Positions 372 to 21,971 of a DNA stretch of 32,000 nucleotides are shown one piece after another (the first letter of the stretch is position 1; every line of letters begins with the position of its first letter). The translations under genes and the position numbers were made by a program. The notes below the pieces were generated by a model. The model did no database searches. It worked only from the letters and a program-made list of their open reading frames with translations, and was not told the DNA's origin. This DNA is from Flavobacteriaceae bacterium (lineage in GTDB: Bacteria > Bacteroidota > Bacteroidia > Flavobacteriales > Flavobacteriaceae). The stretch lies in assembly GCA_965224465.1 (NCBI GenBank), contig OZ245049.1, positions 3,090,001-3,122,000 of the forward strand, read 5' to 3'.

Positions 372-466
372 ATACAAATACGAACACATTGATAAACATA
401 AATATGGACACATCAGTATGCCTCCTAAAGGATTGAGTTAAAAGACAATTTTCAACTAATTCTAAT

Positions 467-1090
467 GTGTATCATTTTCACCCGATTGCATTTGTGGAAC
501 AGATGAAGTTGATTGCTGGGGAACTTGATATTAAATCTGGTATTGAGTGGTTAGACTCTATTGCTATAAATCAGGAAAAAGCAGGGGTAAAATCTAATTA
601 TAAGGTTTTATATGTTCAAGAAGGGCCTAAATTGAGAACGTCAGATTCAGATGAAGCCTTAAAATATTCCGATTGTTCAGAATTAGTCTGTAGATTTTTA
701 AATAAAATAGGGTGGAGTAAAAAAGTTAAACACTTAAACACTTCTGCTTTGTATTCATTTGCGCAGAAAAACCCAAATTTATTAGAAAAACATGACAAAG
801 ATTATGTTCCTCAAAAAGGAGGTATTTTTCTTTGGGCTAACAAAGCAGGTTCAAATGGTCATACGGGAATTGTTGTAGATTATGACAGTAAAATTGATGT
901 TGTAACTACAATTGAAGCTATTAATTTTAAAGAAAGACCTTATGGTGCTACAAGTAGTATCAAATTACAAGGAGTTGTTAAAGCTAAGTGGAAAAGAAAA
1001 TCAAGTCACTTAATGAGTCATCCATTAATAACTACTAGATATGAAGCACACCCTTGTAGATTCTATTCTCCTAAAAAATCAGATAAATAA
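467..1090 (+). CDS. Orphan toxin module 1: junction motif HFHPIAFVEQM followed by an NlpC/P60-type cysteine peptidoglycan peptidase
   Basis: The frame opens at 437. There is no ATG before 503, which is the Met of VEQMK; the track start at 467 is GTG. NlpC/P60 signature: SDCSELVCRFL (Cys) ... GGIFLW ... GHTGIVVDYD (His) ... TTIEA. No signal peptide or delivery domain. Confidence 0.75.
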   Translation: MYHFHPIAFVEQMKLIAGELDIKSGIEWLDSIAINQEKAGVKSNYKVLYVQEGPKLRTSDSDEALKYSDCSELVCRFLNKIGWSKKVKHLNTSALYSFAQKNPNLLEKHDKDYVPQKGGIFLWANKAGSNGHTGIVVDYDSKIDVVTTIEAINFKERPYGATSSIKLQGVVKAKWKRKSSHLMSHPLITTRYEAHPCRFYSPKKSDK

Positions 1091-1100
1091 TATTTACACT

Positions 1101-1769
1101 ATGAAAAAAACAAATTATTATATCTTATTAGGATTGATATTTTTATTAATATGTTGTAAAAATAAGGTTCCTAAAAGTGATTTATTGGGTAGTGAAAATA
1201 CTAATCATTTAATTGAAGAAAATGACCGCAAAGCAGACAGTTCATTAATTTTAGAAAAAGCTATAAATTTTGATGAGATTTATAATATTCTTTTAAATTC
1301 ATACCAAAAAAGAAATAACAAATTAGTTAAAAAGCTAGATAATAATTATTTGGAAAAATTAATTATAAAAAATAAAATTTCAAAAATTAATATAGATAAG
1401 TACGTGCAAATCAATTTCTTCTTAACTTTTTTAGATCAAAATAAAGATTACGGCGAATCATTATATGATGTTTTACCAATTAATGAGTTTGAGCCATCAA
1501 AGGATGCATATAAATATGTTGAAAGACCTTTTAATTATTTAGAAAATAATATAGAAGAAATAATAGAGAAAGTTGATTTAAAAAAAAATGATCCATTATG
1601 GGTTAAATATTACCTAAGTGAAGAAGGAATAAATAATATGCTTACGTTCTATGACAAGCAAATTAATTTTAAAAAATACTCTACTCTACTTAATCTTCTG
1701 AAGAAAGAACCTTTATTAATCCAATTCGAAAATACAGAACGAATAATTAAAGAAATAAGCGAAAAATAA
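1101..1769 (+). CDS. Lipoprotein, putative cognate immunity protein of orphan toxin 1
   Basis: ATG at 1101 gives MKKTNYYILLGLIFLLICCKNK (signal peptide plus lipobox Cys). It starts 10 nt after the toxin stop. Very AT-rich, with no recognisable domain. Confidence 0.6.
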   Translation: MKKTNYYILLGLIFLLICCKNKVPKSDLLGSENTNHLIEENDRKADSSLILEKAINFDEIYNILLNSYQKRNNKLVKKLDNNYLEKLIIKNKISKINIDKYVQINFFLTFLDQNKDYGESLYDVLPINEFEPSKDAYKYVERPFNYLENNIEEIIEKVDLKKNDPLWVKYYLSEEGINNMLTFYDKQINFKKYSTLLNLLKKEPLLIQFENTERIIKEISEK

Positions 1770-1992
1770 CCGAGTATCTTTCTCGTACTCACAACAAAAA
1801 CAAGACTATGCTCCCCCGCTGGCGCAAGCAGAACAAATAGCCTGGTAAAGGCTAGTGCGAGTGTCACGCTCGTACCGTTAAGAGTAAGAAAAGAAATGAT
1901 ACGCTTAAATAATTCAGAAGAGAGAACAGGAAAATAAAATAGAGGGTTTAGTTTGTTTAACGGCACAAGCAAGATGTTTGTGCGAGCGAGGC

Positions 1993-2691
1993 ATGAGCGA
2001 TGAAGAGATTCGTTTAGCAAAAGAGTTTGATGAGTTAGAGAAAGAAAGAACTCCGAGAGAGTTTCCTGCTGATTCTAATGTGTATCACTTCCACCCTATT
2101 GCATTTGTGGAACAGATGAAGTTATTAATTACAAAAGAAGATATAGATCTTAGGCCTTTGATGACTTTTGAACCACAAAGAGGTTCTTCAGATTGTAATA
2201 TTACTTGTAAGCGAATAATGAAGAAAATGGGAGTTATTGCCGAAGGAGCAACAGGGGAAATTTCTATTTTCGGAGGATCTTATCGTCAGTCAAAATATCA
2301 ATTAGCTAATGAAACGGCTTCCCGTGATAGTTTAATTTTTTATGAAGAACCTAGTATAAAAGGTGTTGCATACTTGGATAGAGCTCTTGAGTATGGTCAT
2401 CCTGTTTTGGTAGGTGTTCATCATACTTTTCAGTACAGAGGAGGTAAAGGTATAAATGAAGGAACTACAGATCATTATGTTATTATTGTAGGAAGGAAGT
2501 ATGTAGGTGGAAAACAATTTTATATTTTTTGGGATGTAGGAACAAGAAGAGGAAATAGTACTGAATGGGTTTTTGAATACAGAGAAGGGAAATTAATAGC
2601 AGATAAAACGTATAAATCTGGAAATAAAAGTTATACTTTAATACAAATTAGAAGAAACATTGACGAAAATGGAAAAACACTTACTTACTAG
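1993..2691 (+). CDS. Orphan toxin module 2: junction motif followed by a papain-like Cys/His hydrolase (probable peptidoglycan amidase)
   Basis: The track start at 1978 is TTG; the first ATG is at 1993. Motif NVYHFHPIAFVEQMKLL at 2086-2118. Candidate catalytic residues are SSDCNITC (Cys), TTDHYVIIVG (His) and FWDVG (Asp). The family assignment is tentative. Confidence 0.6.
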   Translation: MSDEEIRLAKEFDELEKERTPREFPADSNVYHFHPIAFVEQMKLLITKEDIDLRPLMTFEPQRGSSDCNITCKRIMKKMGVIAEGATGEISIFGGSYRQSKYQLANETASRDSLIFYEEPSIKGVAYLDRALEYGHPVLVGVHHTFQYRGGKGINEGTTDHYVIIVGRKYVGGKQFYIFWDVGTRRGNSTEWVFEYREGKLIADKTYKSGNKSYTLIQIRRNIDENGKTLTY

Positions 2692-3358
2692 TATAGTTAT
2701 TATTTTGCTAATACTAGGCTCTTGTAGAGAGAAAGCAAATAAAGGTTCTTTAGATGAAATTAGTAAAAAAAAAGACTCTGTATTGGTAAATGATTTACCT
2801 GCATTAAGTTTAAATCTAGAAAACAATGAGGTAATAACTTTAAAAGGGAAGAAGTTTTATTTATTAAAAGAAAAACCGGATAAAGAGTTGTTTTTAAATA
2901 AAAATTATTTTGAGAGTGAAATGGAAGTTTATACTTTTAAAGCTAATAAGTTTAAAGATAGAACGGGTAGTGCTATAATGGAGCCTCTAGAGTACGATGT
3001 ATTAAAAGAAATCAATAGTGGTCAGTATATTAATTTAGTAATTGAAAATTGGAATAATGAAAAGAGAAAGATACGGTTTGAATATAATCCAACTAAAGGT
3101 TTGTTATATAAAATAAAAAATAATAAAAGAACAATGACATTCTTAGATTCTCTCAAAATAAATTCTTTTAAGATAGTGTATATGGTGCCTTGCGGCGAAT
3201 ACACTGATGAATATGAGAAGAAAGATTGTTTAGAAGAATATATTAAAACTGAAGAAGAGAGAAGGGTACGGGCTAATGATTTTAAATGGTATCCACGTTT
3301 AGATTGTGCTAATATTTTTGATAGTGAATTTTGTAAAAAACTAAATAAGATTAACTAA
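2669..3358 (+). CDS. Lipoprotein, putative immunity protein of orphan toxin 2
   Basis: ATG at 2669 gives MEKHLLTSIVIILLILGSCRE (lipobox LGSC). It overlaps the toxin 3' end by 23 nt. Confidence 0.6.
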   Translation: MEKHLLTSIVIILLILGSCREKANKGSLDEISKKKDSVLVNDLPALSLNLENNEVITLKGKKFYLLKEKPDKELFLNKNYFESEMEVYTFKANKFKDRTGSAIMEPLEYDVLKEINSGQYINLVIENWNNEKRKIRFEYNPTKGLLYKIKNNKRTMTFLDSLKINSFKIVYMVPCGEYTDEYEKKDCLEEYIKTEEERRVRANDFKWYPRLDCANIFDSEFCKKLNKIN

Positions 3359-3369
3359 GTAGAATTATA

Positions 3370-4917
3370 TTGATAATTTTTCATAAGAATAATAGCAAAA
3401 GTAAAAAACCCTACACAGCACCCATAAAAGAAGAAGATAAAACAAAAACGAGTAGCACCAAAAGACCTTCTATGTTGCCAGAAGGTACAGTGGTAGAAGA
3501 AATACCACAAAAAGATGTTGTACCTTTAGACAATAAAACAACAGCAGCTAAACCAGATGCTAAACCAACGGAAGATAGTATACAAACGACAAGTACAACC
3601 GCTGCTCCAGCACCGGAAACTAAAGTAGAAGAAAAAGAAGTGCCACGAAAACGTATGTTTCCAAGTACAGATATAGTACATCACTTTCATCCAATTGCTT
3701 GGGTGGAGCAGATGAAACTTATTTTTGGGGAGGGTGGCGGAGATTGTGAATCTCTTATTTGGGGAAATAAAGTAAGTTGTGAATTTAGAGAAAAAGTAAT
3801 TAAAATAGCAATCAATTTATGGGGAGAAGATAAGAAAATTGAAATGGCTAATAATTTAATGGCGGTATTTGCTTGGGAAAGTGGAGGTACTTTTAAATCA
3901 GATGCTCCAAACATGGGGAACTCTGGAGGAACAGGTTTAATTCAATTTATGCCTGAAACTGCAAAAGGTTTATTAAATAAAGAGATTACTATTGAGACTG
4001 TCAAGAATTATTGGGGTAAAGGAAAAAATTTAAAACGAGTAAAAGAATTTGCACAAATGACAGATATAGAACAGTTGTCATATGTTGAGAAGTACTTTAA
4101 AAGGTTAAAAGGGAAAGAATTAAAGTTTGTCGATTTTTATTTACAAGTACTATTCCCTGCATCTATGGGTAAATCTGATGACCATGTTGTATTCTCCAAA
4201 GATGGTAGTGGACTATCAAAAACAGATAGACATTATAATTTACGTATAAAAGCATATTCTCAAAATAAAGGGTTTGACACAAATGAAAAATATGGAAATA
4301 ATGATGGACAAGTAACCAAAGGGGAAATAAAGAAAAGTATTCAAAAATATCTTAATGATGGAAAAAAATATAAAAATAACTGTAATGATGGAAGTTGTAC
4401 ATTGGGAAGTGAGAAAAATAATAATATCATTGAAAATGGAGTAATTCTTAATTTTATAGGAAAATCATCAAAAGAATCATCTTTGTCTATTAAAACAAAA
4501 AATATTTTAAAGGAGGTTGGTAAAATTTCTGGAAATGAGAATATAATTATTACTAGTACGGCTAGAACTCCTTATGATCAAGCTAGAATAATGTATAACA
4601 ATTGTAAAGCTGGTCTACAAGAACAAAGAAATACTTATAAATCACCAGGGCAAAAAGTTATTGACGTATATGTTGAGGAGACCAAAAATAAAAAAACTAG
4701 AACTGAAATAATTTCTGCAATGGAAAAAAAGATAAAATCTTTAGGTGCTTCTTCTGTTTCTAGCCATTGTGCAGACCAAAGTATAATAAATACATTTGAT
4801 ATCTCTTATGCTAATTTAAAGGACAAAACAAAATTTTGGAATGAAATGAAAAAAAGAGTTGAACTAGATAAAATTTTAAACGAAAATAAATGTTACCATA
4901 TTCAAATAAAACAATGA
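3370..4917 (+). CDS. Orphan toxin module 3: effector linker plus junction motif plus SLT/GH23 lytic transglycosylase plus a second peptidase-like domain
   Basis: The track start at 3370 is TTG; the first ATG is at 3472. Residues 11-115 are nearly identical to residues ~735-839 of the 1202-aa effector. SLT signature: AVFAWESGG...GGTGLIQFMPETAKGL. The C-terminal part (IIITSTARTPYDQARIMY ... SSHCAD...FDIS ... CYHIQI) is reminiscent of LAS/M15 zinc peptidases, with low certainty. Confidence 0.7.
   Translation: MIIFHKNNSKSKKPYTAPIKEEDKTKTSSTKRPSMLPEGTVVEEIPQKDVVPLDNKTTAAKPDAKPTEDSIQTTSTTAAPAPETKVEEKEVPRKRMFPSTDIVHHFHPIAWVEQMKLIFGEGGGDCESLIWGNKVSCEFREKVIKIAINLWGEDKKIEMANNLMAVFAWESGGTFKSDAPNMGNSGGTGLIQFMPETAKGLLNKEITIETVKNYWGKGKNLKRVKEFAQMTDIEQLSYVEKYFKRLKGKELKFVDFYLQVLFPASMGKSDDHVVFSKDGSGLSKTDRHYNLRIKAYSQNKGFDTNEKYGNNDGQVTKGEIKKSIQKYLNDGKKYKNNCNDGSCTLGSEKNNNIIENGVILNFIGKSSKESSLSIKTKNILKEVGKISGNENIIITSTARTPYDQARIMYNNCKAGLQEQRNTYKSPGQKVIDVYVEETKNKKTRTEIISAMEKKIKSLGASSVSSHCADQSIINTFDISYANLKDKTKFWNEMKKRVELDKILNENKCYHIQIKQ
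3399..3715 (+). repeat. 317-bp homology tract shared with 11575-11891
   Basis: Constant offset of 8176 nt, no indels, about 9 substitutions by eye (~97%). It covers the P/T/K linker through the Met of VEQM, and similarity collapses immediately downstream. Confidence 0.9.
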
Positions 4918-5714
4918 AAAACAAATATTTAATAATATTTTTTTTGATTACATTAATAATTTCTTGTAAAGAAATAGAGAACCCAAAAATAACAACAAAT
5001 ATAAATAAGATAAAAGATACAATTAGAATCAACTGTAAAGAATGTATTATTGATCTTAAGTTTAATAATAAAAAGTTAAATAAATTAAAAGAAAAATATT
5101 CTAATGATGATTTTTATATTATAGCTGATGATGCAAACAATTATACATCTAATGTAAGAGACTTCTTAGGTCAAGAGAAAAAAGAAATTATTAAAATAAA
5201 AATGAATTCTAATAATGTTTTAAAAATTAATAATAGATTTATTATTCCCTATGAAAAAATTAATTATTGGGATTATATTTTATGTTTAAATAGTACAAAA
5301 CCAAAAATTGTCAGCCCAATTGAATTTATAGATGTTTATCAGACGTACTATATTGACAAAATCAAATCAATTAAACCTAATTGGATAGGGAGTTTTAATT
5401 TTTTTAATGACTTAGGCAAAATTGGAGATTCTGGAATTTTTATTGGATATAATATTAATATTTCAAAAGATAGTATTTTGTTTTCTGGGCAAGGTTATCA
5501 AACTAATTTTTATGATTTGTGTTACGCCAAGCAAAATAAAGATACCTTAGAATTATATTACAAAAAAACAATTGAAGGAACAGATTATAATAAAAAAGAG
5601 AAAAAAGCATTATTTAAACTATATATTAAAAACAGCAATTATTATGGTAAAAGTCCTGTAATATTTATTGAATCTATTAATAACACTCCTTTTCAATTAG
5701 AAAAAAATGATTAA
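4914..5714 (+). CDS. Lipoprotein, putative immunity protein of orphan toxin 3
   Basis: ATG at 4914 gives MKNKYLIIFFLITLIISCKE (lipobox ISC). There is an ATGA start/stop overlap with the toxin ORF. Confidence 0.6.
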   Translation: MKNKYLIIFFLITLIISCKEIENPKITTNINKIKDTIRINCKECIIDLKFNNKKLNKLKEKYSNDDFYIIADDANNYTSNVRDFLGQEKKEIIKIKMNSNNVLKINNRFIIPYEKINYWDYILCLNSTKPKIVSPIEFIDVYQTYYIDKIKSIKPNWIGSFNFFNDLGKIGDSGIFIGYNINISKDSILFSGQGYQTNFYDLCYAKQNKDTLELYYKKTIEGTDYNKKEKKALFKLYIKNSNYYGKSPVIFIESINNTPFQLEKND

Positions 5715-5717
5715 TTA

Positions 5718-7291
5718 ACTCAAGTTTCGCACTTAGATAGATTTACGCAACCTCTTGATAGTTAAGCTTGTGGATATTCACTAGGAATCCAAAATCTTCA
5801 ATATTCGCTATTATTTTACGTGTAACCATTTCAACATCAATAGATTCAATCATCTTTTCCAAAATGTCAATCACCAAGCTGATAACTGCTAATATCCTGA
5901 TGTTTAGCTTATTCTCTATATAATCTTGTTTTAAATCTTTAAACAAGCCTCCTATAGTTTCGTAGGCTTCCATTCTATATCGAATACTGGTGAGTAAATA
6001 TTGAACCATTATAATGCTTATTTGTGCGATTTGAATATCGAAATTAGTAGACTGACATTTTCCAAGACCAAACAACTGCTTAGCTTCTTTAAAAAACACT
6101 TCTATGGACCATCTGATACTGTATATTTCAATAGCCTTTACAAATTTCAGTGTTGTATCCGTTGATATTAACGTGTGCCATTTGCCATTCTTTCCACGTT
6201 TTGAAATAAATACAGCAACCTTAAGACCATCAATTTCAGTTATGTAATGATGGTAGTAATAATTGAATTTACGGCATCGTTTTGGTTTTATTTTCTGTTT
6301 TTTGAGTTGTGACAACGTTTTTATCTTTGATCGAACTTCAATCTTACTGTTGTATTTATACATCCCAATAATATGAGTTGAACTACTAATGTTCCGTAGC
6401 TTTCTAAGTAATTTAACACTTGTAAACCAGGTGTCTATTAAGATGTAATCTATGGGGATTTTACGTTTTACAAGCCTTGAGAACATTTGAACTAGCAGGT
6501 CTGTTTTCTTTTTATTGAGTTCCTGATACCTCTTTGCTGCAATTGTTTTACTACATCTTGGAGTTTTCTTTTGAAGCCTACGTTGCTTCGCCGTTAGACC
6601 GTATTTTAATTTTGATGTTTTACTTTCACGATGCAAACTAAAGTCAACAGGGATAAATACACTTCCATTCCAATAACCAGCTACAAGTAGCTTAAAGCCT
6701 AGGTAATACGTTTTTGACACATGGTTGTATATTTTTGAAACACCTTCAATTGTCTTTCCTGTTTTAGAAAGATCAGTATCGTCAAAGATCAAGCACTTTG
6801 TAGCGTCTTGAGATGGAGTAAAGAACTCTTCTTTTAATAGATATTGCTTCACAAACTGAGCTAGAAAAACCCTCCAATTTATCTTTTGATTTGCTAGGAT
6901 TCGATAGTATGAATCTTTACCCGACTGACCTAATCCCTTGTCTTTACTACTTGTAAGTCCATGAATAGAATCAAATCCGATAATAGGTAAAATTAAAAGT
7001 GTAGAGATTAAATTACCGAATGAAATCCCCGATTTCTTACACCAACTAAACTTGTTTTTAATTTTATTGAATCCTAAAATATTTAGATGTGCTTGTAGGT
7101 ATTCTGAACTAAGCCAAATCTTATTAAATTTTCCTTTTATCTCCTGTGTTTTTGTGATATCTTCGTGTTCTAGCATGTTTTGTACTTTCTTGTTCGTACT
7201 TAAAAGTACAATAAAACCAGGGGATTACCTTGGTTTTCATGCTATTTATTTTTACTTAAACACCTGTAAATGATGGGTGCGAAACTTGAGT
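5718..7291 (-). mobile_element. Complete IS4-family insertion sequence (1574 bp)
   Basis: Perfect 15-bp terminal inverted repeats: ACTCAAGTTTCGCAC at 5718-5732 and its reverse complement GTGCGAAACTTGAGT at 7277-7291. They enclose a single DDE transposase ORF. No flanking direct repeat is seen. Confidence 0.85.
5743..7176 (-). CDS. IS4-family DDE transposase (477 aa)
   Basis: Long ORF with the IS4-type C-terminal Y-x2-R-x3-E-x6-K block (YSIRWSIEVFFKEAKQ). It is bracketed by the IRs. Confidence 0.9.
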   Translation of the reverse strand: MLEHEDITKTQEIKGKFNKIWLSSEYLQAHLNILGFNKIKNKFSWCKKSGISFGNLISTLLILPIIGFDSIHGLTSSKDKGLGQSGKDSYYRILANQKINWRVFLAQFVKQYLLKEEFFTPSQDATKCLIFDDTDLSKTGKTIEGVSKIYNHVSKTYYLGFKLLVAGYWNGSVFIPVDFSLHRESKTSKLKYGLTAKQRRLQKKTPRCSKTIAAKRYQELNKKKTDLLVQMFSRLVKRKIPIDYILIDTWFTSVKLLRKLRNISSSTHIIGMYKYNSKIEVRSKIKTLSQLKKQKIKPKRCRKFNYYYHHYITEIDGLKVAVFISKRGKNGKWHTLISTDTTLKFVKAIEIYSIRWSIEVFFKEAKQLFGLGKCQSTNFDIQIAQISIIMVQYLLTSIRYRMEAYETIGGLFKDLKQDYIENKLNIRILAVISLVIDILEKMIESIDVEMVTRKIIANIEDFGFLVNIHKLNYQEVA

Positions 7292-7555
7292 AAACTTATA
7301 TCATTGAAGGATTCTCTTGAAGATATACTTTCAAGCCATTCACTTAATATTGATGATGAAATTATTTCAACTATTAGTTCATTGTGCATTGAAATTAGAT
7401 TGATGATTAACGAGTTTCGATTTAATTCTACTCATGAAGAATTAACTGGAGAAAAAGAAGGGATTTCTGGAGCTAATCGGCTAGATAAAATTTATGATAT
7501 GATTATGGATTTACTAAGATTACTTGAGCATGAAAATGGTATTAAAAGAGAATAA
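7277..7555 (+). CDS. Hypothetical 92-codon ORF, possibly the 3' remnant of a gene cut by the IS4 insertion
   Basis: The GTG 'start' lies inside the IS4 inverted repeat and the first in-frame ATG is well downstream. An identical copy is at 17355-17633. No domain recognised. Confidence 0.3.
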   Translation: MRNLSKLISLKDSLEDILSSHSLNIDDEIISTISSLCIEIRLMINEFRFNSTHEELTGEKEGISGANRLDKIYDMIMDLLRLLEHENGIKRE

Positions 7556-7703
7556 AGCAAAGCTGCTAACAATAAATATAGGTCATTTGGCAGGTAATGC
7601 AAATTTTGAAAATGAGTACAATTAATATAATATATAGCGTTTGGATAGGTTGGAGCTTTGAAATGCCAAACGCCCCATATTCAAGCCGTTGGCAAACATT
7701 AAA

Positions 7704-8324: not shown

Positions 8325-8486
8325 CGAAATGCCAATAACTAAGTGTTCGTGCGATACCTAGCGCCCAGCATGAACATCCTGTTGACTGTATCGTTTCAAA
8401 AGATGATACTATGAGGTTGGCGCAATTAATTAAGAGGCTATCAACAAAGACCTTAATAAGATACTACCTGTTTTAGTGCATTTACT

Positions 8487-8516
8487 CCCACGCTCTTTTG
8501 TGGGGATAGTTTTTTA
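8487..8516 (+). terminator. Weak candidate intrinsic terminator
   Basis: CCCAC (8487-8491) / GTGGG (8500-8504) stem followed by GATAGTTTTTT. The stem is only 5 bp and lies ~165 nt after the upstream stop. Confidence 0.3.
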
Positions 8517-8726
8517 CTGTTTTTTGATACTGATTATTGTTGGTTAGTAGCGTTTAGGCATGCGCTTTCTATTACGTGGCTACGTTTATTTTTTAACAAC
8601 GCTAGAACGTAAAACAACCTATTTATATCGGTTATAAGATAAAGGTCAAATCGGTACGGTAATTAGATGAATAAAAATACAGGGAAATATAATCGGAAAA
8701 CCACTACTGCATATAACTATTTTTTG

Positions 8727-8900: not shown

Positions 8901-9362
8901 ATGCCAGGACCAGCAGCAACAATATCACACATGCACACATGCCCTATGTATAGTGGAACAAGCCCACATACTGGTGGCCCCATTATAGGCCCGGGAGTGC
9001 CAACAGTTTTAATAGGAGGAAAACCTGCCGCAGTAATGGGGGATCAATGTACCTGTTCGGGACCACCCGATGTAATTGTAGAAGGTGTTTCTACCGTATT
9101 AATTGGCGGGAGACCTGCAGCTACTATGGGATCAAAAACAGGTCATGGAGGCGAAGTAAGCATTGGAAATCCTACCGTACTTATTGGTACAAGATGTAGT
9201 GCTCCTACCGCAATAATGCCAGTGCATAAAATACCTTTTCCTAAAATCACTCTAATTAATAGAATATTAGGGAATACAAGGCAAGCGCAAGAAAACCAAG
9301 AAAAAATAAAAGAAGAAGCTAAGAAACATGGATATCTTAGTGATTTTAATTTAAGTATCTAA
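8901..9362 (+). CDS. PAAR-domain protein with a ~55-aa C-terminal tail
   Basis: Gly/Pro-rich beta-repeat with literal PAA motifs (GGKPAAVMGD, GGRPAATMGS), conserved H/C residues (HMHTCPM, CTCSG) and repeated TVLIGG strands. GC is markedly higher than in the flanks. Confidence 0.9.
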   Translation: MPGPAATISHMHTCPMYSGTSPHTGGPIIGPGVPTVLIGGKPAAVMGDQCTCSGPPDVIVEGVSTVLIGGRPAATMGSKTGHGGEVSIGNPTVLIGTRCSAPTAIMPVHKIPFPKITLINRILGNTRQAQENQEKIKEEAKKHGYLSDFNLSI

Positions 9363-9373
9363 AATAAAAATCT

Positions 9374-12300: not shown

Positions 12301-12982
12301 TTATTTATTAAATGGTTTTGTAACCAGAGCGATAGAAGAATGTGCATCACACACTTGGGCTAGTTTTACTCCTGGTAGATATCCAAAACAAGGGCCAACA
12401 AAGGGACTTACAAATAAGAAAAAAATAAAAGACGCTATACATAACGCTAGAGTAAAGCAATGGGAAGCCTATGATAAATTTCTTACTGAAGAGCTAGCTG
12501 GACAATCTGATTTACATTTAGAACCTGGATTTTTAAAAAAGTTTGGAATTAAAGAGCCTGAACCAAAGGAGCTAATAGAAAACAAAAAAGAAGGGCTTGA
12601 TTTAAATAAAGCAATTGAAAGATTAAATAAAAGAGCTGGTGACATGACTACTTCAGTATGGAAATGTGCTAAATATGTTAGATGGGCTTTAGAAGCTGGG
12701 GGAATGAAAACATGGGGTGCTGCTAAAATAGATCAACGCCCAAATTCGGCAAAAGATTATGGCCCGTTTTTATTAAACAAAGGTTTTAAAGAAGTTCCTA
12801 AGGGTAATTATCAAAAAGGAGATATATCAGTTATTCAAAATTTAAGTGCGGCAAAACCTCATGGGCACATAGCTATGTGGAATGGTGAAAATTGGGTATC
12901 AGATTTTGTTCAAAAAACTCTTTACCCAGGAGATGGGTATAGAAATGCACAACCAAATTATAAAATTTACAGATGGGAATAA
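9374..12982 (+). CDS. Large polymorphic effector: split M23/LytM-like N-domain, SH3-like inserts, P/T/K linker, HHFHPIAWVEQM junction, GH104 (lambda R-like) muramidase, Tae4/NlpC-P60-like amidase
   Basis: Starts 11 nt after the PAAR stop. M23-like blocks: WHGGIHLEG, GRIIAYRF, GFILIQH, FYSLYHHL, then ~190 aa later IKAGVTIGYTGSLG...ATHLEVF. The C-terminal region is colinear with phage lambda R: RVRAFLRLIKEFEG / FSDMSTHPEK / STAAGAYQIM..TWWDY / KDFSAKSQD / HTWASF. The last ~135 aa carry KCAKYVRWAL (Cys) ... KGDISVI ... HGHIAMWNGENWVSDF (His), as in Tae4-type amidases. Confidence 0.85.
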   Translation: MRVSYPLKDISTDAEAKNYLGNRNLFGKYPIGAHNAWHGGIHLEGASREIQCIAQGRIIAYRFAEGYKKTIINNSDHLYSNGFILIQHDYKSKEKQKMTFYSLYHHLMPKDEITTNKFSLPDFVSKKKHVVTRGLGILNLGLRGRKLKDNVINWKDKDTIVVVIPKGELVQAMLDENSKEIRKGNWLKVSYTDKNNKKYENIYLSTKYGTKYKVKQIGTTTTYEIITTEDPDNSILGAIVRTEAINSSEIVKVIENGFPIKIDDSYKNKGWIKLADNTGYILESSLDKKKVLAKNVKLNTITACDIPIKAGVTIGYTGSLGFKGYKGYKATHLEVFTTDDVFEFLSNEKKDGKEEQYFTNIIAGTTLKTSLFYKVDIKANTPIKVLKIEGDYAQIKVTSITATLVRDTDINDNVKPFNSNKLYTIKNLTTVNKAFNGLATKDATFNTKQVKAPRNWRTNLNRTVTFYPNGYGKVFWIEKTFISKITEKTKKKAGIFVSITPDYFLTEEQKYDTVEREAKTGEKTTLYVDVCKAYIEVPFRTDVEEVTVEKEKVVDLRKFKKAKDDKKDLWYKVVLDDTTSSQCVAVKGWVKEKDLDKFSAYDWQKFGFKDLDAGNEYIYSVKDLCKAEDSAAFVTEIWDKTIDTDGNKVLDILELIRAFSKPEIAQKLSRLVCKHKNEWSYTMDEIKPEVKELYDFGIQLEEVTAEKQKLETERDDSLAKMETKIENLMWWDEASKKTYTAPIKEEDKTKTSSTKRPSMLPEGTVVEEIPQKDVVPLDNKTTAVKPDAKPTKDSIPTTSTTAAPAPETKVEEKEVPPKRMFPSTNIVHHFHPIAWVEQMRRVFGDNGICVCEARVRAFLRLIKEFEGVPGEKGYTTLFNHKSFSDMSTHPEKPILWYKNKKTGKNVYSTAAGAYQIMKETWWDYNGDVVKDHKKVGRNENRNFVKKYGIKDFSAKSQDKFCIALLIHGYKAKNQLNYLLNGFVTRAIEECASHTWASFTPGRYPKQGPTKGLTNKKKIKDAIHNARVKQWEAYDKFLTEELAGQSDLHLEPGFLKKFGIKEPEPKELIENKKEGLDLNKAIERLNKRAGDMTTSVWKCAKYVRWALEAGGMKTWGAAKIDQRPNSAKDYGPFLLNKGFKEVPKGNYQKGDISVIQNLSAAKPHGHIAMWNGENWVSDFVQKTLYPGDGYRNAQPNYKIYRWE
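11575..11891 (+). repeat. 317-bp homology tract shared with 3399-3715
   Basis: See the partner feature at 3399-3715. Confidence 0.9.
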
Positions 12983-13842
12983 ATAAAATATTTAAACTTT
13001 TAGTTGTATTTGCTTTTTTTAGTTCTTTCTTATCATGCAAAGAAAGTCCTAAAAAAAACAATGATGTTGTAGTAAATAATACATCGTCATCACTTAATGT
13101 AGGAAAAAAGAATAATCCCCAAACAAAAATAGAGTCTAAAGATTTTATTCTTGAATTTTACACAAAATATATTAAATATTTAGAAGATCCTTTAAATGAA
13201 GAATCAATAGATTATGAATTTTATTTAACGGAAGATTTGATTGATGAAATTGGAAAAACAGAAGGTTATGATTACATTATAAAAGCCCAAGATTCAACTG
13301 TAGAATGGTTGAAATCTTTAAAAGTAGAGGATACTGAGAAAAATAACGTTTACAGTATTACTCGTGAAAAAGGTTATTATGATAGTGATGATAATACAAT
13401 TTATGCCACTGTTATAGAACTAAAAAATGAAAAATTAAAAATATCAAAGTTAAGTAGTACTTTAATAGATCAACCTATTTCTACTCCAGTAGAAAACGAA
13501 GATCAGAAAGGTAAGTTTACTTATTACTCTTTTGATTATAAAATAAATCCTGGAGATCGCATTAATGAGACAAGTTATATTATAGAATATTTAGAAGAAG
13601 AACATATTGTTTTTTCAATGATGGGATATGATGGAGAGTTTGACTATAAATGTAGACAGGTAAGGACAAAAGAAGGTGTTTCACTTTATTATATAGAAGC
13701 TACTGATGATGATGAATATACAGGAAATAAAAGTAAACCACTCGCTAGAATATATAAAAAAGGTGAAGATTTTTATGCTAAAAGTTCACTTATAGAAGAT
13801 GGTAAAGAAATTAAGCTAAAAGAAGTTGAAAGTAGATACTAA
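12973..13842 (+). CDS. Lipoprotein, putative immunity protein for the full-length effector
   Basis: MGINKIFKLLVVFAFFSSFLSCKES (lipobox LSC). It overlaps the effector stop by 10 nt, and its position is analogous to the three orphan-linked lipoproteins. Confidence 0.65.
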   Translation: MGINKIFKLLVVFAFFSSFLSCKESPKKNNDVVVNNTSSSLNVGKKNNPQTKIESKDFILEFYTKYIKYLEDPLNEESIDYEFYLTEDLIDEIGKTEGYDYIIKAQDSTVEWLKSLKVEDTEKNNVYSITREKGYYDSDDNTIYATVIELKNEKLKISKLSSTLIDQPISTPVENEDQKGKFTYYSFDYKINPGDRINETSYIIEYLEEEHIVFSMMGYDGEFDYKCRQVRTKEGVSLYYIEATDDDEYTGNKSKPLARIYKKGEDFYAKSSLIEDGKEIKLKEVESRY

Positions 13843-13963: not shown

Positions 13964-14272
13964 ATGAGAAAAAACGAAGAAAAACGAGCCTATATGACAG
14001 CTGTTGTTTCCGATTGGAAGTTGAGTGATTTAACCTTGGAAGATTATTGTAAAAGTCATAAAATTACACTTTGTAAATTTAGGTACTGGAATAAGAAATT
14101 GACCTCCAAAAAAGCCAGTGGATTTTCAAAGGTTGAACTTATTGATGCTCCTATTGAAAACAGCAGAAATTCTATTTTAGATAGTTTTAAAATCGAGTAT
14201 CCAACAGGTGTAAATTTGGTCATTAACAAAGAGATTACACTTGTCGATTTACAAAATTTAATTCATTTGTAA
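13964..14272 (+). CDS. tnpA: IS66 accessory protein TnpA (Orf1)
   Basis: Small first ORF of the IS66 triplet, 102 aa, directly upstream of the tnpB-like ORF. Confidence 0.75.
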   Translation: MRKNEEKRAYMTAVVSDWKLSDLTLEDYCKSHKITLCKFRYWNKKLTSKKASGFSKVELIDAPIENSRNSILDSFKIEYPTGVNLVINKEITLVDLQNLIHL

Positions 14273-14273
14273 T

Positions 14274-14615
14274 ATGCTAAATCTTTCAAGTGAACTTGAT
14301 TTTCATCTGTACCTAGAACCCACAGATATGCGTAAAGGATTTAATGGTTTGTCAGGTGTTATCCGTAATAATTTAGAAGAGGATCCTAGTAATGGAGCTG
14401 TTTTTATCTTCATAAATAAACCTCGAAACAAAATAAAACTATTGCATTGGCAAGCAGGTGGATTTGTACTGTATTATAAACGATTGGAACGAGGTACTTT
14501 TGAACTCCCGGTGTATGATAATCTGAAAGGAAGTATACAAATGAAATACAGCCAAATGGTGATGCTTCTTGATGGACTGTCTATCAAAAACATCCAACAA
14601 AGGAAACGTTATTAA
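14274..14615 (+). CDS. tnpB: IS66 Orf2 protein TnpB
   Basis: DMRKGFNGLSGVI...GAVFIFINKPRNKIKLLHWQAGGFVLYYKRLERGTFELP matches the conserved IS66 Orf2 pattern. Confidence 0.9.
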   Translation: MLNLSSELDFHLYLEPTDMRKGFNGLSGVIRNNLEEDPSNGAVFIFINKPRNKIKLLHWQAGGFVLYYKRLERGTFELPVYDNLKGSIQMKYSQMVMLLDGLSIKNIQQRKRY

Positions 14616-14683
14616 TGTCTTTTTACAGGTAAAAAACCTAATAAAACCAGGCTGTTCATGTATATTTTTCGTATATTTAATGT

Positions 14684-16327
14684 ATGGAAAAAGACTTAGA
14701 ACAGCTATCAAAAAAAGCACTTATAGCCCTATTACAGGAGGCTAATTCTAAGTCAGATTTACTTATCAAAAAGACAAGTTCTCTTAGTGCAAAAAATGAG
14801 TTACTTACTATAAAGACAAAAGACGTTACTTTACAAAAGGCTATCCTAGAAGCTCAATATAAAGAATTAGAGACAAAATACGGATATGGACAATTTCAAT
14901 TAGAGCAATTACGTCGTATGATTTTTGGGACAAAACGTGAGCGTTTTATAATGGCTAATAACCCTTTTCAAATGCAACTCCCTTTCGAAGTTTTAAAAGA
15001 GATGCCCCAGGAAGAAGAAGCTCCTGTAAACATTACATATCAACGTAAAAAGACTAAAAAAAGAACGATTGGAAGTTTAAATCTCCCCAGTCATTTACCT
15101 GTTGAAATTATTAATTTAGAGCCTAAAGAGACTATAGAGAACCGAATAAAAATAGGTGAAGAAATTACAGATAAATTAGAACTTGTACCCACAAAGCTAT
15201 ACATAAAACGATATGTCAGACCAAAATACGCCTTAAAAAAGAAAGTACAAGACACATTGATTGACAATGGAAACCCTTTAGGTATTAAGACCGTTATTAT
15301 GGCTGATTTACCAAGTTTTGCTATTGAAAAATCTGTAGCATCAAACAGCCTGCTAGCACAGCTATTGATTGATAAATTCTTAGATCACTTACCGTATTAT
15401 CGACAGATAGAACGTTTTAAACGAGAAGGAATCTCTATAAGTTCATCTACAATAAATGGATGGCAAAACAGCTTAGGACACTTACTTAAGCCGCTGTATC
15501 AGGCTATGAAAAACACGGTGCTGTCACAAGGATATGTACAGGCCGATGAATCAACTATTCCGGTGCTAGACAAACAGAAAAAAGGAAAAACTCATACTGG
15601 ATATCATTGGGTGTACTATTCACCCATACAAAAAATGGTATTGTTTGATTATCGTCACTCTAGATCTAAACATGGACCTAGAGAAATGCTTAAAAACTTT
15701 AAAGGGTATTTACAAACAGATGGCTACGCTGTATATGATGAATTTGCACTTAAAAAAGATGTCACTTTAGTAGGGTGTATGGCACATGCACGTCGTTATT
15801 TTGAGAAAGCACTAGACTATGACAAAGTAAAAGCGAGTCATGCGATGGTACTCATTCAACAATTATATGCCATTGAACGACATTGTAAAAACCAGGAATT
15901 TACTCCTGAGCAACGGCATGCTTATCGCCTAGATAAAGCACAACCAATAATGGATACATTTATAAAATGGTTGATCCATAATACCCAAGGAAGCTTACCT
16001 AAAAGTTCCTTAGGAAAAGCAATCACTTATACATTAAAACGATGGGACTACTTAAAAGCCTACCTGTATGACGGTACTTTAGAACTAGATAATAACCTGG
16101 TAGAAGGATCTATCAGAACATTAGCTATTGGACGTAAAAATTATTTATTTGCAGGTAGCCATGATGCTGCAAAAAATGCTGCCATGTTCTACTCCTTTTT
16201 TGGGACTTGTAAAAAACACCAAGTAAACCCCTATAAATGGATGAAAAAAGTACTGGATATAATCCCTGATTACAATGCTCGAAAGCTAAATGAGCTATTT
16301 CCACAAAATTTAAACCTCGATCAATAA
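14684..16327 (+). CDS. tnpC: IS66-family transposase TnpC
   Basis: 547 aa with an N-terminal coiled coil, DHLPYYRQIERFKREGI, and a DDE-type core (HWVYYSP..., LQTDGYAVYD, GCMAHARRYF). Confidence 0.9.
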   Translation: MEKDLEQLSKKALIALLQEANSKSDLLIKKTSSLSAKNELLTIKTKDVTLQKAILEAQYKELETKYGYGQFQLEQLRRMIFGTKRERFIMANNPFQMQLPFEVLKEMPQEEEAPVNITYQRKKTKKRTIGSLNLPSHLPVEIINLEPKETIENRIKIGEEITDKLELVPTKLYIKRYVRPKYALKKKVQDTLIDNGNPLGIKTVIMADLPSFAIEKSVASNSLLAQLLIDKFLDHLPYYRQIERFKREGISISSSTINGWQNSLGHLLKPLYQAMKNTVLSQGYVQADESTIPVLDKQKKGKTHTGYHWVYYSPIQKMVLFDYRHSRSKHGPREMLKNFKGYLQTDGYAVYDEFALKKDVTLVGCMAHARRYFEKALDYDKVKASHAMVLIQQLYAIERHCKNQEFTPEQRHAYRLDKAQPIMDTFIKWLIHNTQGSLPKSSLGKAITYTLKRWDYLKAYLYDGTLELDNNLVEGSIRTLAIGRKNYLFAGSHDAAKNAAMFYSFFGTCKKHQVNPYKWMKKVLDIIPDYNARKLNELFPQNLNLDQ

Positions 16328-16345: not shown

Positions 16346-16383
16346 TATTTTTAATTCCTATACGTACTTCGTCGGACGGATAC

Positions 16384-17633: not shown

Positions 17634-17646
17634 AGCAAAGCTGCTA

Positions 17647-20836: not shown

Positions 20837-21298
20837 ATGCCAGGACCAGCAGCAACAATATCGCACATGCACACATGCCCTATGTATAGTGGAACAAGCC
20901 CACATACTGGTGGCCCCATTATAGGCCCGGGAGTGCCAACAGTTTTAATAGGAGGAAAACCTGCCGCAGTAATGGGGGATCAATGTACCTGTTCGGGACC
21001 ACCCGATGTAATTGTAGAAGGTGTTTCTACCGTATTAATTGGCGGGAGACCCGCAGCTACTATGGGATCAAAAACAGGTCATGGAGGCGAAGTAAGCATT
21101 GGAAATCCTACCGTACTTATTGGTACAAGATGTAGTGCTCCTACCGCAATAATGCCTTTGAGTCAAATACCTTTTCCTAAAATCACTCTAATTAATAGAA
21201 TATTAGGGAATACAAGGCAAGCGCAAGAAAACCAAGAAAAAATAAAAGAAGAAGCTAAGAAAAATGGATATCTAAGCCTTGTTGATTTTAGTATTTAA
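20837..21298 (+). CDS. PAAR-domain protein, second paralog
   Basis: 153 aa, identical to the 8901-9362 product except for VHK->LSQ in the tail and the last ~11 residues (NGYLSLVDFSI vs HGYLSDFNLSI). Confidence 0.9.
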   Translation: MPGPAATISHMHTCPMYSGTSPHTGGPIIGPGVPTVLIGGKPAAVMGDQCTCSGPPDVIVEGVSTVLIGGRPAATMGSKTGHGGEVSIGNPTVLIGTRCSAPTAIMPLSQIPFPKITLINRILGNTRQAQENQEKIKEEAKKNGYLSLVDFSI

Positions 21299-21309: not shown

Positions 21310-21971
21310 ATGAAAGTAGAGTACCCATTATTACCTTCTGATAAAAAAGATGCTGAAGAATTTACTAAAGAAGAACTTATTTCTAAATATTATGGGCAAA
21401 AAAATCGCTTTGGTTTTTTTCCTATAGGACGTTTAAACTCTTGGCATGGAGGGATTCATATAGAAAGTTCAAGTAGTAAAGTTAGAGCTGTTGCAGATGG
21501 AAGAATAATAGCTTATAGAATTACAGAGGATCTTTTGACTGAAAAAGAAAGGGATAAAAAGTACTCTAACAGTTTTATTCTAATACAGCACAATTTTGAA
21601 ACTCCTAAAAAACAAAAGTTGCGTTTTTATAGTTTGTATATGCATTTACAAACTAAAAATCAATTAGAAAGTGGGTCTGGAAAACATATCCCAAATTTAT
21701 ATGCTAAATATATTGCAAAAGTAACAGGAAAACAGCAACGAGGTGGACTTAATGCAAGATCTGGTTCTGAAACATATGTTAGCAGTAGTAAAAAATGGGG
21801 GAAAATAAAAATGGTTATTTATAAAGACGAAATTGTTAGTTATGATATATCCCCTATAACTGGAGAAAAAGGGGAAAAGATAATGGGAGCTTCTTTTGCA
21901 GATGACCATTGGATTAATGACCATGATTATAAATATATCCCAATTATATATAAAGGACATAGCGATTTAGC
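21310..21971 (+). pseudogene. N-terminal ~220 codons of a second, diverged M23-like effector, ending at the IS30 insertion
   Basis: Colinear with the N-terminus of the 1202-aa effector (NSWHGGIHIE, GRIIAYRI, SFILIQH, FYSLYMHL). The last codons of the track ORF (AEFKSQTQLLVK) are IS30 terminal sequence. Confidence 0.8.

Follow-up and report, generated by a model that had tools for sequence, protein, structure and literature searches.

The window that we analyzed is a stretch of 32,000 nucleotides from a Flavobacteriaceae genome; the host is a marine flavobacterium. A degenerate DNA pattern for the motif HFHPIA[FW]VEQM matches the + strand of the window four times (at 473, 2086, 3682, and 11858), while the expected count from dinucleotide shuffles was 0.00. 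Three of the matches are in short open reading frames (ORFs), which we call orphans, and the fourth is within a 1202-aa PAAR-linked protein (Table 1). After the motif, each orphan encodes a different type of peptidoglycan hydrolase, or tip. The next gene in line encodes an h-region and then a lipobox cysteine in all three cases. These putative immunity lipoproteins, including lipo1 (MKKTNYYILLGLIFLLICC...) and lipo2 (MEKHLLTSIVIILLILGSC...), start +10, -23, and -7 nt from their toxin genes, as an earlier note on this DNA had indicated (or -28 nt for the alternative ATG of lipo3). Each of the three tips is intact, as is its immunity gene.

Table 1. Features of the locus
Feature	Coordinates	Strand	Evidence or remarks
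Orphan cassette 1 toxin	437..1090	+	CHAP / NlpC-P60-type amidase tip
Putative immunity lipoprotein 1 (lipo1)	1101..1769	+	h-region and lipobox Cys
Orphan cassette 2 toxin	1978..2691	+	C39-like (papain-fold) tip
Putative immunity lipoprotein 2 (lipo2)	2669..3358	+	h-region and lipobox Cys
Orphan cassette 3 toxin	3370..4917	+	lytic transglycosylase tip and second C-terminal domain
Putative immunity lipoprotein 3 (lipo3, DUF5991)	4911..5714 (alternative ATG 4890)	+	Pfam DUF5991, E 4.9e-12
IS4-family transposase	5743..7176	-	NCBIfam NF049925, E 1.6e-116; between orphan array and PAAR-WHIX module
PAAR spike-tip protein, ~55-aa C-terminal extension	8901..9362	+	PF05488, E 4.7e-21; effector gene 11 nt downstream
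Full-length WHIX-domain T6SS effector, 1202 aa	9374..12982	+	WHGGIH at residues 37-42
Putative immunity lipoprotein of the full-length effector (lipoFL)	12973..13842	+	lipobox FLSC
IS66-family element (tnpA, tnpB, tnpC)	13964..16327	+	adjoins the effector-immunity pair
IS4, truncated second copy	16358-17254
Second PAAR gene	20837..21298	+	in duplicated segment; 98% identity to first copy
Second WHIX effector gene	21310..22008	+	another subfamily; WHGGIH present
IS30 transposase	21997-23001	-	NF033563, E 1.2e-86

The earlier note claimed that the orphans begin essentially at the motif, with GTG or TTG start codons and no signal peptide. The start codons are as claimed, and when we inspected the translations, none of the three had a hydrophobic N-terminus. 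Orphan 1 opens at 437, directly after a TGA, with a GTG at 467; its first ATG (503) is the methionine of the motif (473-505), and 12 codons are retained ahead of the motif. Orphan 2 has about 36-60 codons before its motif (2086-2118), or 36 if counted from the TTG at 1978. In orphan 3, the motif (3682-3714) is 104 codons beyond the TTG at 3370, so the claim is literally true of orphan 1 only.

The tips are different cell-wall hydrolases, as had been proposed. Tip 1 matches the Pfam families CHAP and Amidase_5 at 27 and 25.8 bits, both barely over the cut-off. Tip 2 has a C39-like papain fold (PDB 9jdd, E 4e-16; profile E 2e-31). Tip 3 is a lytic transglycosylase (PDB 9udh, E 2.8e-16), and the sole match for its C-terminal domain, to DUF5715, is below threshold.

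The full-length effector has an SH3_3 insert and carries the motif at nucleotides 11858-11890 (residues ~829-839), which agrees with the delivery region of ~830 aa that the orphans were said to lack. Its own tip combines a lambda-lysozyme-like domain with an NlpC/P60-type amidase. The orphan array is upstream of this gene, with an IS4 element between them, and the locus has many insertions (IS4, IS66, IS30, and one group II intron). The IS30 element breaks off the second WHIX gene after about 220 codons; what remains is 53-57% identical to P0036, P0038, and P0029.

The parent family of effectors

The earlier note described the head of the full-length effector as M23-like. Our tests did not support this: the Pfam M23 matches in family members are in the C-terminal toxin domains, and the family profile had no match among M23 structures. 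The head is a WHIX domain, which was described in T6SS cargo effectors by Fridman et al. (PLoS Biol 2025, PMC12135965). Alignment with hhalign to WP_005373349.1 gave 99.1% (E 4.3e-19), BLASTP also found the homology (E 5e-15), and the published WHIX tree contains five homologues of the window's protein, including proteins from Tamlana and Aquimarina. Like the window's protein, the effectors in PMC12135965 have an N-terminal WHxxxH motif (here, WHGGIH), polymorphic C-termini that target peptidoglycan, immunity proteins with signal peptides encoded downstream, and VgrG and PAAR genes nearby. As aligned, the junction motif forms the conserved C-terminus of WHIX, in Proteobacteria as well: it matches the end of the published definition (LWHYWPF, residues 470-476 of the Vibrio protein), and its counterpart in Raoultella and Pantoea is SVWHFHPLEF. 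On the other hand, the delivery region is much longer in Bacteroidota (~750-1100 aa, with SH3 and EF-hand-like inserts) than the ~477 aa of the published effectors.

The parent family is T6SS cargo effectors with an N-terminal WHIX delivery region of ~750-1100 aa that ends in (V)WHFHPIAFVEQM, then a swappable peptidoglycan-hydrolase tip, and then a putative periplasmic lipoprotein immunity gene. Normally, the effector genes are in vgrG-PAAR-effector-immunity modules. In the 73 loci that we fetched, there were 48 full-length genes and 37 orphans, which supports the earlier note's view of N-terminally truncated toxins with putative lipoprotein immunity in a PAAR-linked, polymorphic family of Bacteroidota. 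Of 68 loci, about 55 have a PAAR gene directly 5' of the effector, and a VgrG gene is upstream in about 31 loci. The motif is at residues ~720-1000, followed by unrelated tips of 170-470 aa; on average, pairs of sequences are 35% identical before the motif and 18% identical after it. An ORF with a signal peptide or lipobox comes next after 47 of the 48 full-length genes and 32 of the 37 orphans. Orphans are downstream on the same strand in 16 of the 47 loci that have a full-length gene, and at least 16 independent genomes share this layout.

Shared junctions, tips, and immunity genes

At the sequence level, these comparisons established the anatomy of the cassettes, their membership in the family, the sharp boundaries of homology, and the presence of the same tips in both states. 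Across 24 pairs of full-length gene and orphan, nucleotide homology extends for 45-690 nt at 74-97% identity, and for most of them it breaks off 1-19 nt beyond the motif. Within the window, 3399-3716 (orphan 3) matches 11575-11892 of the full-length gene over 318 nt at 97% identity, and the homology stops 1 nt past the motif. Orphans 1 and 2 have just the motif region in common with that gene (63-65% over ~68 nt), so they would not readily recombine with it, and they appear to belong to a different WHIX subfamily. Their partner is likely the second WHIX gene that IS30 disrupted.

The earlier note proposed a search for the tips fused to full-length effectors elsewhere, and we found every tip type on full-length delivery regions. 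Orphan 1 is closest to an orphan from Olleya sediminilitoris (L031, 71% identity), and full-length genes with CHAP tips at 34-39% identity occur in L011, L052, and L049 and as P0020. Orphan 2, junction included, is 69% identical to residues 771-990 of P0041, a full-length WHIX effector from Olleya sp. HaHaR_3_96, and shares 56% identity with P0023 of A. muelleri. In L011 and L015, full-length genes have tips that share 67-72% identity with the transglycosylase part of tip 3. Also, Aquimarina algicola (L005) and Cellulophaga (L006) have the tip of the window's full-length effector in orphan form, at 68% and 57% identity.

By sequence homology, three putative pairings of tip and immunity gene hold across genomes: tip 2 is accompanied by lipo2, tip 3 by DUF5991, and the full-length effector's tip by lipoFL. 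A lipo2 homologue (49% identity) is directly 3' of a tip-2 homologue in Olleya Bg11-27, and one also follows the tip-2 homologue in Olleya HaHaR_3_96. DUF5991 homologues are 3' of tip-3 homologues in L001, L011, L015, and L048, and lipoFL homologues come after the orphan tips in L005 and L006. Because lipo1 has no homologue in the fetched loci, including beside the tip-1 homologue in L031, and no match in Pfam or NCBIfam, we pair it with tip 1 purely by position.

Two comparisons of close relatives show a tip swap directly. In L080, the WHIX 3' part of the full-length gene is 97.9% identical to the window's, and the tip diverges from the motif onward. Directly downstream, as first orphan, are a protein identical to orphan 3 (P0042) and lipo3; this segment is 99.6% identical across the two assemblies, even though the surroundings differ. 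L080 shows the canonical order, with the array 3' of the full-length gene, and the window's IS66 element is also 3' of lipo3 there, in inverted orientation. Similarly, orphan P0003 of Olleya Bg11-27 is 91% identical to full-length P0041 at the syntenic locus of HaHaR_3_96, and the flanks are 99% identical.

Orphan arrays of Rhs and CdiA toxins and immunity genes were reportedly described by Poole in 2011 and by Koskiniemi in 2014, and the parallel drawn by the earlier note holds up. In both cases, 5'-truncated toxin ORFs retain just the conserved pre-toxin junction, each has an immunity gene after it, the cassettes line up behind a full-length gene, homology stops sharply at the junction, and identical tip types are found on full-length genes of other strains. 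However, the window's family has no YD/Rhs repeats, PxxxxDPxGL, VENN, or FHA-type delivery regions (no Pfam matches). Its carrier is a WHIX cargo effector with a separate, adjoining PAAR gene, its tips are all predicted to act on the cell wall, its putative immunity proteins are lipoproteins, and the window's array was displaced upstream by IS elements. Kirchberger is said to have described, in 2017, orphan immunity arrays in T6SS auxiliary clusters of Vibrio cholerae. There too, newcomer effector-immunity modules displace old ones at cargo-effector loci to give arrays downstream, but mostly immunity genes and short effector remnants survive, whereas the WHIX cassettes keep whole toxin domains and the junction. 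The orphan immunity clusters of the Bacteroidales acquired interbacterial defence (AID) system, reportedly from Ross in 2019, are also T6SS-related arrays in Bacteroidota that possibly protect against toxins that the cell itself does not fire. Those clusters are immunity-only, recombinase-associated, and mobile, while in WHIX arrays the toxin tips are kept, and junction homology links the arrays to the effector locus.

Neither the effector class nor the orphan principle is new. The text of PMC12135965 does not mention Bacteroidota, recombination, or truncated cassettes; we found no orphan copies at the six proteobacterial WHIX loci that we inspected and no earlier description in the literature of orphan arrays on WHIX effectors. 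So the earlier note's suggestion of an undescribed association stands for the arrays but not for the effector family. Its reading of the array as orphan cassettes is well supported, and its interpretation overall is partly supported.

A proposed reservoir of warheads

We think it quite probable that bases 437-5714 are three orphan "WHIX-CT / immunity" cassettes, a swap reservoir of WHIX T6SS effectors; they look like swap-in warheads. An incoming tip/immunity cassette would recombine at the 3' end of the WHIX-coding region, which is conserved, and shove the earlier tip and immunity gene downstream. The displaced tip would persist as an ORF with no promoter or head and a short WHIX 3' remnant, and this remnant could be a substrate for homologous recombination or gene conversion that returns the tip to the full-length gene. 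Here, the substrate would be the 318 nt shared by orphan 3 and the full-length gene. The window's array is upstream of the surviving full-length gene because IS4/IS66/IS30 activity rearranged the locus. From there, a simple direct-repeat deletion would destroy the gene rather than re-arm it, so gene conversion or unequal sister-chromatid exchange would be required for a productive swap. We infer the direction and mechanism of recombination, and also that the immunity genes are expressed, that the tips are toxic, and that their neighbors neutralize them. Promoter-consensus scans for transcription signals were at chance level.

It is unlikely that the cassettes are neutral wreckage from displacement or IS rearrangement, with at most the immunity genes under selection, like those in the orphan arrays of V. 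cholerae, and the toxin ORFs not yet degraded. Many orphans have stops in their 5' fragments while nucleotide homology runs on, three have truncated tips, the distal orphan of Olleya Bg11-27 no longer has the motif and is followed by an immunity gene that a premature stop has split, the window is full of mobile elements, and it offers no usable partner for orphans 1 and 2. Yet about 34 of the 37 orphans keep full-length tip ORFs (139-470 codons), as do the window's three along with their immunity genes; orphan 3 and lipo3 are nearly unchanged in L080; and a pairwise comparison of an orphan copy with a full-length copy gave a dN/dS of 0.20, a value that cannot be assigned to one branch.

We consider it distinctly improbable that the orphans are stand-alone effectors, translated from an internal start such as the motif's methionine and loaded in trans on a WHIX/PAAR/VgrG carrier as a split effector. 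PMC12135965 does note WHIX proteins without a C-terminal extension whose genes have a separate peptidoglycan-hydrolase gene directly after them, and the intact tips would fit. Also, the motif's methionine is at least 90% conserved and is the start that gene callers chose for P0003 and P0005, but it is equally conserved within full-length proteins, so it is no pointer to a start codon. The 5' remnants are variable and often frameshifted, which suggests recombination scars rather than designed N-termini, and no carrier-binding element is identifiable. Finally, it is hardly credible that these are unrelated small hydrolase genes that share a motif by chance or through an annotation or assembly artefact: distant tip-2 homologues (P0011 and P0012, 32-33% identity) do have their own signal peptides, but the motif count, the 318-nt block, the recurrent layout, and the identical orphan in L080's independent assembly refute this.

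If the cassettes are a swap reservoir, then the immunity genes that were kept may protect the cell from kin that still fire those toxins. Standing immunity together with a recombination reservoir would be a reasonable function for the arrays. What is apparently undescribed is that such orphan arrays are attached to WHIX effectors and are common in Bacteroidota.

The effector family

The 1,202-aa protein encoded by the full-length gene of the window carries a copy of the junction motif (HFHPIA[FW]VEQM) at residue ~830, the fourth in the window, and a PAAR gene (PF05488, E = 4.7e-21) lies 11 nt upstream. [quoted passage not shown] 2025, PMC12135965). In that paper the domain covers residues 1-477 and ends at LWHYWPF, with region 1 at residues 31-126 and region 2 at residues 271-476 of WP_005373349.1; proteins entered the published set by RPS-BLAST (E ≤ 1e-6, at least 70% domain coverage). 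The window's protein has the WHxxxH motif near its N-terminus (WHGGIH, residues 37-42), and W37, H38, G39, G40, and H42 vary little or not at all among 22 family members. Against WP_005373349.1, whose sequence we took from the supplementary AlphaFold CIF file of PMC12135965, BLASTP found 35% identity (E = 5e-15), and hhalign matched region 1 (probability 99.1%, E = 4.3e-19), pairing columns 23-175 of the profile with residues 28-178. Region 2 also aligns at its start (IKVSAGEDIGYMG...HIEMFS versus IPIKAGVTIGYTG...HLEVFT, E = 3e-6). Beyond it, the KHPTDWH and LWHYWPF segments are colinear and align weakly (E = 5e-3 to 6e-4) because the Bacteroidota proteins have large inserts, which also sent a global hhalign alignment of the whole N-terminus along a meaningless path past the start of region 2. 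The published WHIX tree (Fig 1B) includes five of six family accessions, namely WP_102995690 (P0029), WP_067144789 (P0040), WP_150938135 (P0032), WP_216067554 (P0033), and WP_149625758 (P0037); WP_054850689 is not in the tree file. Finally, the proteobacterial WHIX genes that were fetched have SVWHFHPLEF (Raoultella, Pantoea) or VWHFWPF (Photobacterium) at their end and diverge right after. Given these endings and the LWHYWPF end of the domain, the junction motif is probably the conserved C-terminal end of WHIX.

The earlier note had described the head of this effector as M23-like, which is not supported by Pfam, by a profile search of the PDB, or by a fold search. PF01551 matched the head in 0 of 22 members (the M23 matches in P0021 and P0022, at residues 869-998, are tips, i.e., C-terminal toxin domains), and a PDB search with the family profile yielded no M23 chain. 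No M23 signal emerged for the head; Foldseek with an AlphaFold model of residues 1-362 (pLDDT 75, below 50 over residues 1-41, and poor at the WHxxxH segment) gave SH3-like sub-matches only and was uninformative. The motifs of the head read HxxxH and H-L-E, against HxxxD ... HxH in M23, so it may still be a very distant relative.

A search with the N-terminal 854 aa of the full-length protein found relatives in Aquimarina, Olleya, Tamlana/Pseudotamlana, Mangrovibacterium, and metagenomes. In the alignment of 22 members, the motif R.FP...V.HFHPIAFVEQMK lies at residues ~720-1000 and is followed by unrelated C-termini of 170-470 aa, and mean pairwise identity drops from 35% before the motif to 18% after it. 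A genome scan gave 68 loci from Flavobacteriaceae, Marinilabiliales, Cytophagales, and Saprospiraceae, and from a few non-Bacteroidota MAGs with weak and partial matches. PAAR is directly upstream of the effector in the window and in ~55 of the 68 loci, and a VgrG gene is upstream of PAAR in ~31; the window itself has no VgrG gene. It is this conserved vgrG-PAAR-effector synteny that links the family to the T6SS.

The central delivery region has an EF-hand-like calcium-binding loop, DTDGNKVLDILEL (effector residues ~633-655); Pfam EF-hand_1 matches 3 of the 22 members, and UniRef titles some relatives "EF-hand domain-containing protein." The source genome (a 5.24-Mb contig) encodes at least five further WHIX paralogues or fragments (P0014, P0016, P0019, P0024, and P0106). 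P0106 (585 aa) is another partial copy on the chromosome, as its 172 residues before the junction are 95% identical to the window's full-length gene.

Headless toxin ORFs and their lipoprotein neighbors

The junction motif is encoded at four sites in the window, all on the + strand, and never in dinucleotide-preserving shuffles. Besides the full-length gene, the sites are in three short ORFs (orphans 1-3), from all of which the delivery region, 830 codons long in the full-length gene, is gone. The start codons that the earlier note assigned to them are right. Its statement that each ORF begins essentially at the motif fits only ORF1 literally; the open frames of ORF2 and ORF3 extend well upstream. 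Bases 1-436 of the window contain no ORF of at least 60 aa and no homology to the WHIX family. The final Met of the motif is at least 90% conserved, even within full-length proteins, and in the orphan genes P0003 (Olleya sp. Bg11-27) and P0005, gene callers place the start at this Met.

Features of the window and their coordinates
Feature	Position	Strand	Remarks
ORF1 (orphan 1)	437/467-1090	+	GTG 467; ATG 503 is the Met of the motif; 12 codons before motif
lipo1	1101-1769	+	putative immunity lipoprotein
ORF2 (orphan 2)	1978-2691	+	TTG 1978; ~59 codons between preceding stop and motif
Tip-2 domain	2128-2691		C39-like
lipo2	2669-3358	+	putative immunity lipoprotein
ORF3 (orphan 3)	3370-4917	+	TTG 3370; ~109 codons between preceding stop and motif
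Tip-3 LT module	3724-4420		lytic transglycosylase
lipo3	4911-5714	+	putative immunity lipoprotein
PAAR gene	8901-9362		PF05488
Full-length WHIX gene	9374-12982	+	1,202 aa
EF-hand-like loop	~11270-11310		in full-length gene
lipoFL	12973-13842	+	follows full-length gene
Junction motif sites	473, 2086, 3682, 11858	+	
Motif-final Met	503-505, 2116-2118, 3712-3714, 11888-11890		
Duplicated segment (~3 kb)	6306-9400 and 16384-21330		98-100% identity
Group II intron	~17800-19400	-	in second copy of duplicated segment
Reverse-transcriptase ORF	17911-19008	-	part of intron
Intron domains D1-D4	19123-19389	-	Rfam models
Second WHIX gene	21310-22008		IS30-truncated
41-nt element	8589-8629, 20524-20564		~270 nt upstream of both PAAR genes
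41-nt element, inverted copy	27142-27182		93% complementary

The tips are mostly recognizable as cell-wall hydrolases of different kinds. Tip 1 matches CHAP / Amidase_5, barely over the Pfam cut-offs. Tip 2 is C39-like, with a papain fold, and has a relative of solved structure (PDB 9jdd, E = 4e-16; profile E = 2e-31). The first part of tip 3 is a lytic transglycosylase (LT; PDB 9udh, E = 2.8e-16), and its C-terminal domain has only a sub-threshold match to DUF5715. The tip of the full-length protein combines a lambda-lysozyme-like domain (1am7, E = 5e-7) with an NlpC/P60-type amidase (related to PDB 4hz9_A, E = 2.4e-24). NCBIfam has no match for the tips or lipoproteins of the window.

The solved homologue of tip 2 is titled "Peptidase C39-like domain-containing protein" (PDB 9jdd, 9jg8, 9jg9) and is present as a 211-aa chain; in a complex, it also forms the C-terminus of a chain of 617 aa. 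The N-terminus of the 617-aa chain does not match the WHIX family profile, and we found no paper behind 9JDD, 9JG8, and 9JG9. The LT module of tip 3 is widely shuffled: 182 relatives (230-700 aa) join it to M23, Amidase_2/3, YkuD, GH19, VanY, or LysM domains (P0102, P0115, P0116, P0123). Since the N-terminus of some is PAAR (PF05488) or WXG100 (PF06013), other delivery routes seem to use this warhead too.

Each short ORF is followed by a lipoprotein gene, as the earlier note had it. The next ORF begins at +10, -23, and -7/-28 nt for orphans 1-3 and at -9 nt for the full-length gene, and all four of these ORFs encode an N-terminal h-region with a lipobox Cys; lipo3 belongs to DUF5991. Tip 2 with lipo2, and tip 3 with DUF5991 (in four genomes), are co-conserved across genomes: in these comparisons, toxin and putative immunity gene travel together. 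For tip 1 and lipo1, no co-conservation was seen in the fetched loci. Promoter scans (50 sigma-70 sites versus 48 expected; 49 versus 53 for the Bacteroidota -7 motif TAnnTTTG) were uninformative about expression of the orphans or immunity genes.

Tips in orphan and full-length states

The earlier note had asked whether the tips also occur fused to full-length effectors, and they do. Tip 2 is on full-length delivery regions in P0041 (69% identity) and P0023 (56%), and the LT part of tip 3 is on full-length genes at L011 (67%), L015 (72%), and P0015 (46%). For tip 1, full-length genes offer only CHAP relatives at 34-39% (L011, L052, P0020); the relative nearest to it is another orphan. Conversely, Aquimarina algicola (68%) and a Cellulophaga genome (57%) have the tip of the window's full-length gene as an orphan, followed in both by a homologue of lipoFL.

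Two comparisons of related loci bear on the exchange of tips. First, orphan 2 matches residues 771-990 of P0041, junction included; in Olleya sp. HaHaR_3_96, P0041 is the full-length effector of a vgrG-PAAR-WHIX module. Olleya sp. Bg11-27 has a syntenic locus with 99% identical flanks, where the full-length gene bears a different tip and an array of orphans closes with the P0041 tip (91%) and its immunity gene. Blocks of homology start or stop at the motif, and the full-length and orphan copies give a pairwise dN/dS of 0.20. In Bg11-27 the motif is missing from this distal orphan and a stop interrupts its immunity gene, so decay also occurs. Second, L080, an independent assembly of a close relative, has the order PAAR, full-length WHIX (1,264 aa), YARHG lipoprotein, orphan 3, lipo3, IS66. 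Its WHIX region matches the window's full-length gene at 97.9% identity over the 3' 1.1 kb, as far as the motif; the tips beyond are unrelated, and its orphan 3 and lipo3 are 99.6% identical to window 3634-5935. At the lipo3/IS66 junction of L080 (12279-12938) are three tandem copies, ~200-260 nt each, of an IS66 end (95-96% identical to window 16124-16386).

Arrays of this kind recur across the family. A six-frame motif scan of 73 fetched loci, with an orphan defined by at most 250 open codons before the motif, found 48 full-length genes and 37 orphans. At 16 of the 47 loci with a full-length gene, one to three orphans lie downstream, on the same strand and within 10 kb. An ORF with a signal peptide or lipobox comes next after 47 of 48 full-length genes and 32 of 37 orphans. 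Between full-length genes and orphans, nucleotide homology (24 pairs, 17 loci) spans 45-690 nt at 74-97% identity and in most pairs ends 1-19 nt past the motif. It often extends farther upstream than the frame stays open, so the 5' remnants are scars, not coding N-termini. Six proteobacterial WHIX loci, a small sample, have no orphan copies. In Aquimarina muelleri (L071, 12828-22841), a vgrG-PAAR-WHIX module is followed by ~18 small same-strand ORFs, only two with a recognizable motif; this run may be a long array that combines degenerate orphans with immunity genes.

In the window, orphan 3 shares 317-318 nt with the full-length gene at 97% identity, ending 1 nt past the motif, and orphans 1 and 2 have only ~68 nt in common with it, at 63-65%. 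The flanks of orphans 1 and 2 instead resemble the KRQFP..NVYHFHPIAFVEQMK type of P0029, P0032, P0033, and P0038, the subfamily of the second, IS30-truncated WHIX gene, which retains WHGGIH. We infer that the array is composite.

The arrangement of the window is atypical in that the array (437-5714) lies upstream of the full-length gene and is separated from it by an IS4 element, an order seen at no other fetched locus; L080 and the 16 loci have the canonical downstream order. Also at the locus are IS66, IS30, a group II intron, and a truncated copy of IS4. The duplicated segment contains the 5' part of IS4, a 92-aa ORF, a 211-aa signal-peptide protein, and PAAR. After the two near-identical PAAR copies come WHIX genes with N-termini that are only ~37% identical, which suggests a recombination breakpoint at the PAAR/effector boundary. 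The 41-nt element, whose inverted copy is beside an unrelated gene pair, may have a regulatory role or be a small repeat element.

Proposed exchange at the end of WHIX

Orphan toxin-immunity cassettes are known for Rhs, CdiA, MafB, and LXG toxins. The hallmarks of Rhs and CdiA proteins are YD/Rhs repeats with PxxxxDPxGL, or FHA repeats with the VENN pre-toxin motif. Pfam finds no RHS, FHA, or PT-VENN match in the window's proteins or in the 22 family members, and the junction motif of this family differs. The arrays are nevertheless alike: headless toxin ORFs keep the junction, homology ends there, and the tips are on full-length genes elsewhere. Unlike the Rhs and CdiA arrays, the window's array is not downstream of the full-length gene, although it is in L080.

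The best reading of the anatomy and the comparative footprints is that tips would be displaced and re-used through homologous recombination at the 3' end of WHIX, as in Rhs and CdiA systems, with the retained immunity genes providing standing protection. A simple deletion between the 318-nt repeats in the window would be non-productive, and re-arming the full-length gene would need gene conversion or unequal sister-chromatid exchange. It seems unlikely to us that the invariant C-terminal end of WHIX (WHFHPIAFVEQM) goes beyond a passive patch of homology and is a selected switching junction of Bacteroidota T6SS loci, with one delivery protein routinely re-armed from a resident library of silent tips (a toxin phase or antigenic variation) and some orphans perhaps also translated from the Met and delivered in trans.

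The earlier note did not recognize the association of orphan arrays with this effector family as described. The effector class is described, as WHIX (PMC12135965); as far as the searchable literature goes, the arrays appear not to be. Neither that paper nor later papers citing WHIX mention Bacteroidota, recombination, or truncated cassettes, and we found no description of truncated WHIX cassettes in the literature, with most subscription journals outside our search. Therefore, orphan WHIX-CT arrays, which are frequent in Bacteroidota and absent from the six sampled proteobacterial loci, appear to be unreported in the searchable literature. Both ingredients are known: polymorphic WHIX effectors since 2025, and orphan toxin-immunity cassettes from Rhs, CdiA, and other systems.

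These arrays extend the orphan-cassette principle to WHIX cargo effectors and to the T6SS loci of marine Bacteroidota, and they point to the conserved C-terminal end of the WHIX domain as the probable site of exchange. The window and L080, like Olleya Bg11-27 and HaHaR_3_96, are natural "before and after" pairs for the diversification of cargo effectors. Annotation pipelines label such ORFs "hypothetical protein" or start them at the motif Met. If the motif were recognized, the toxin and immunity repertoires of Flavobacteriia, Cytophagia, and Marinilabiliales could be catalogued.
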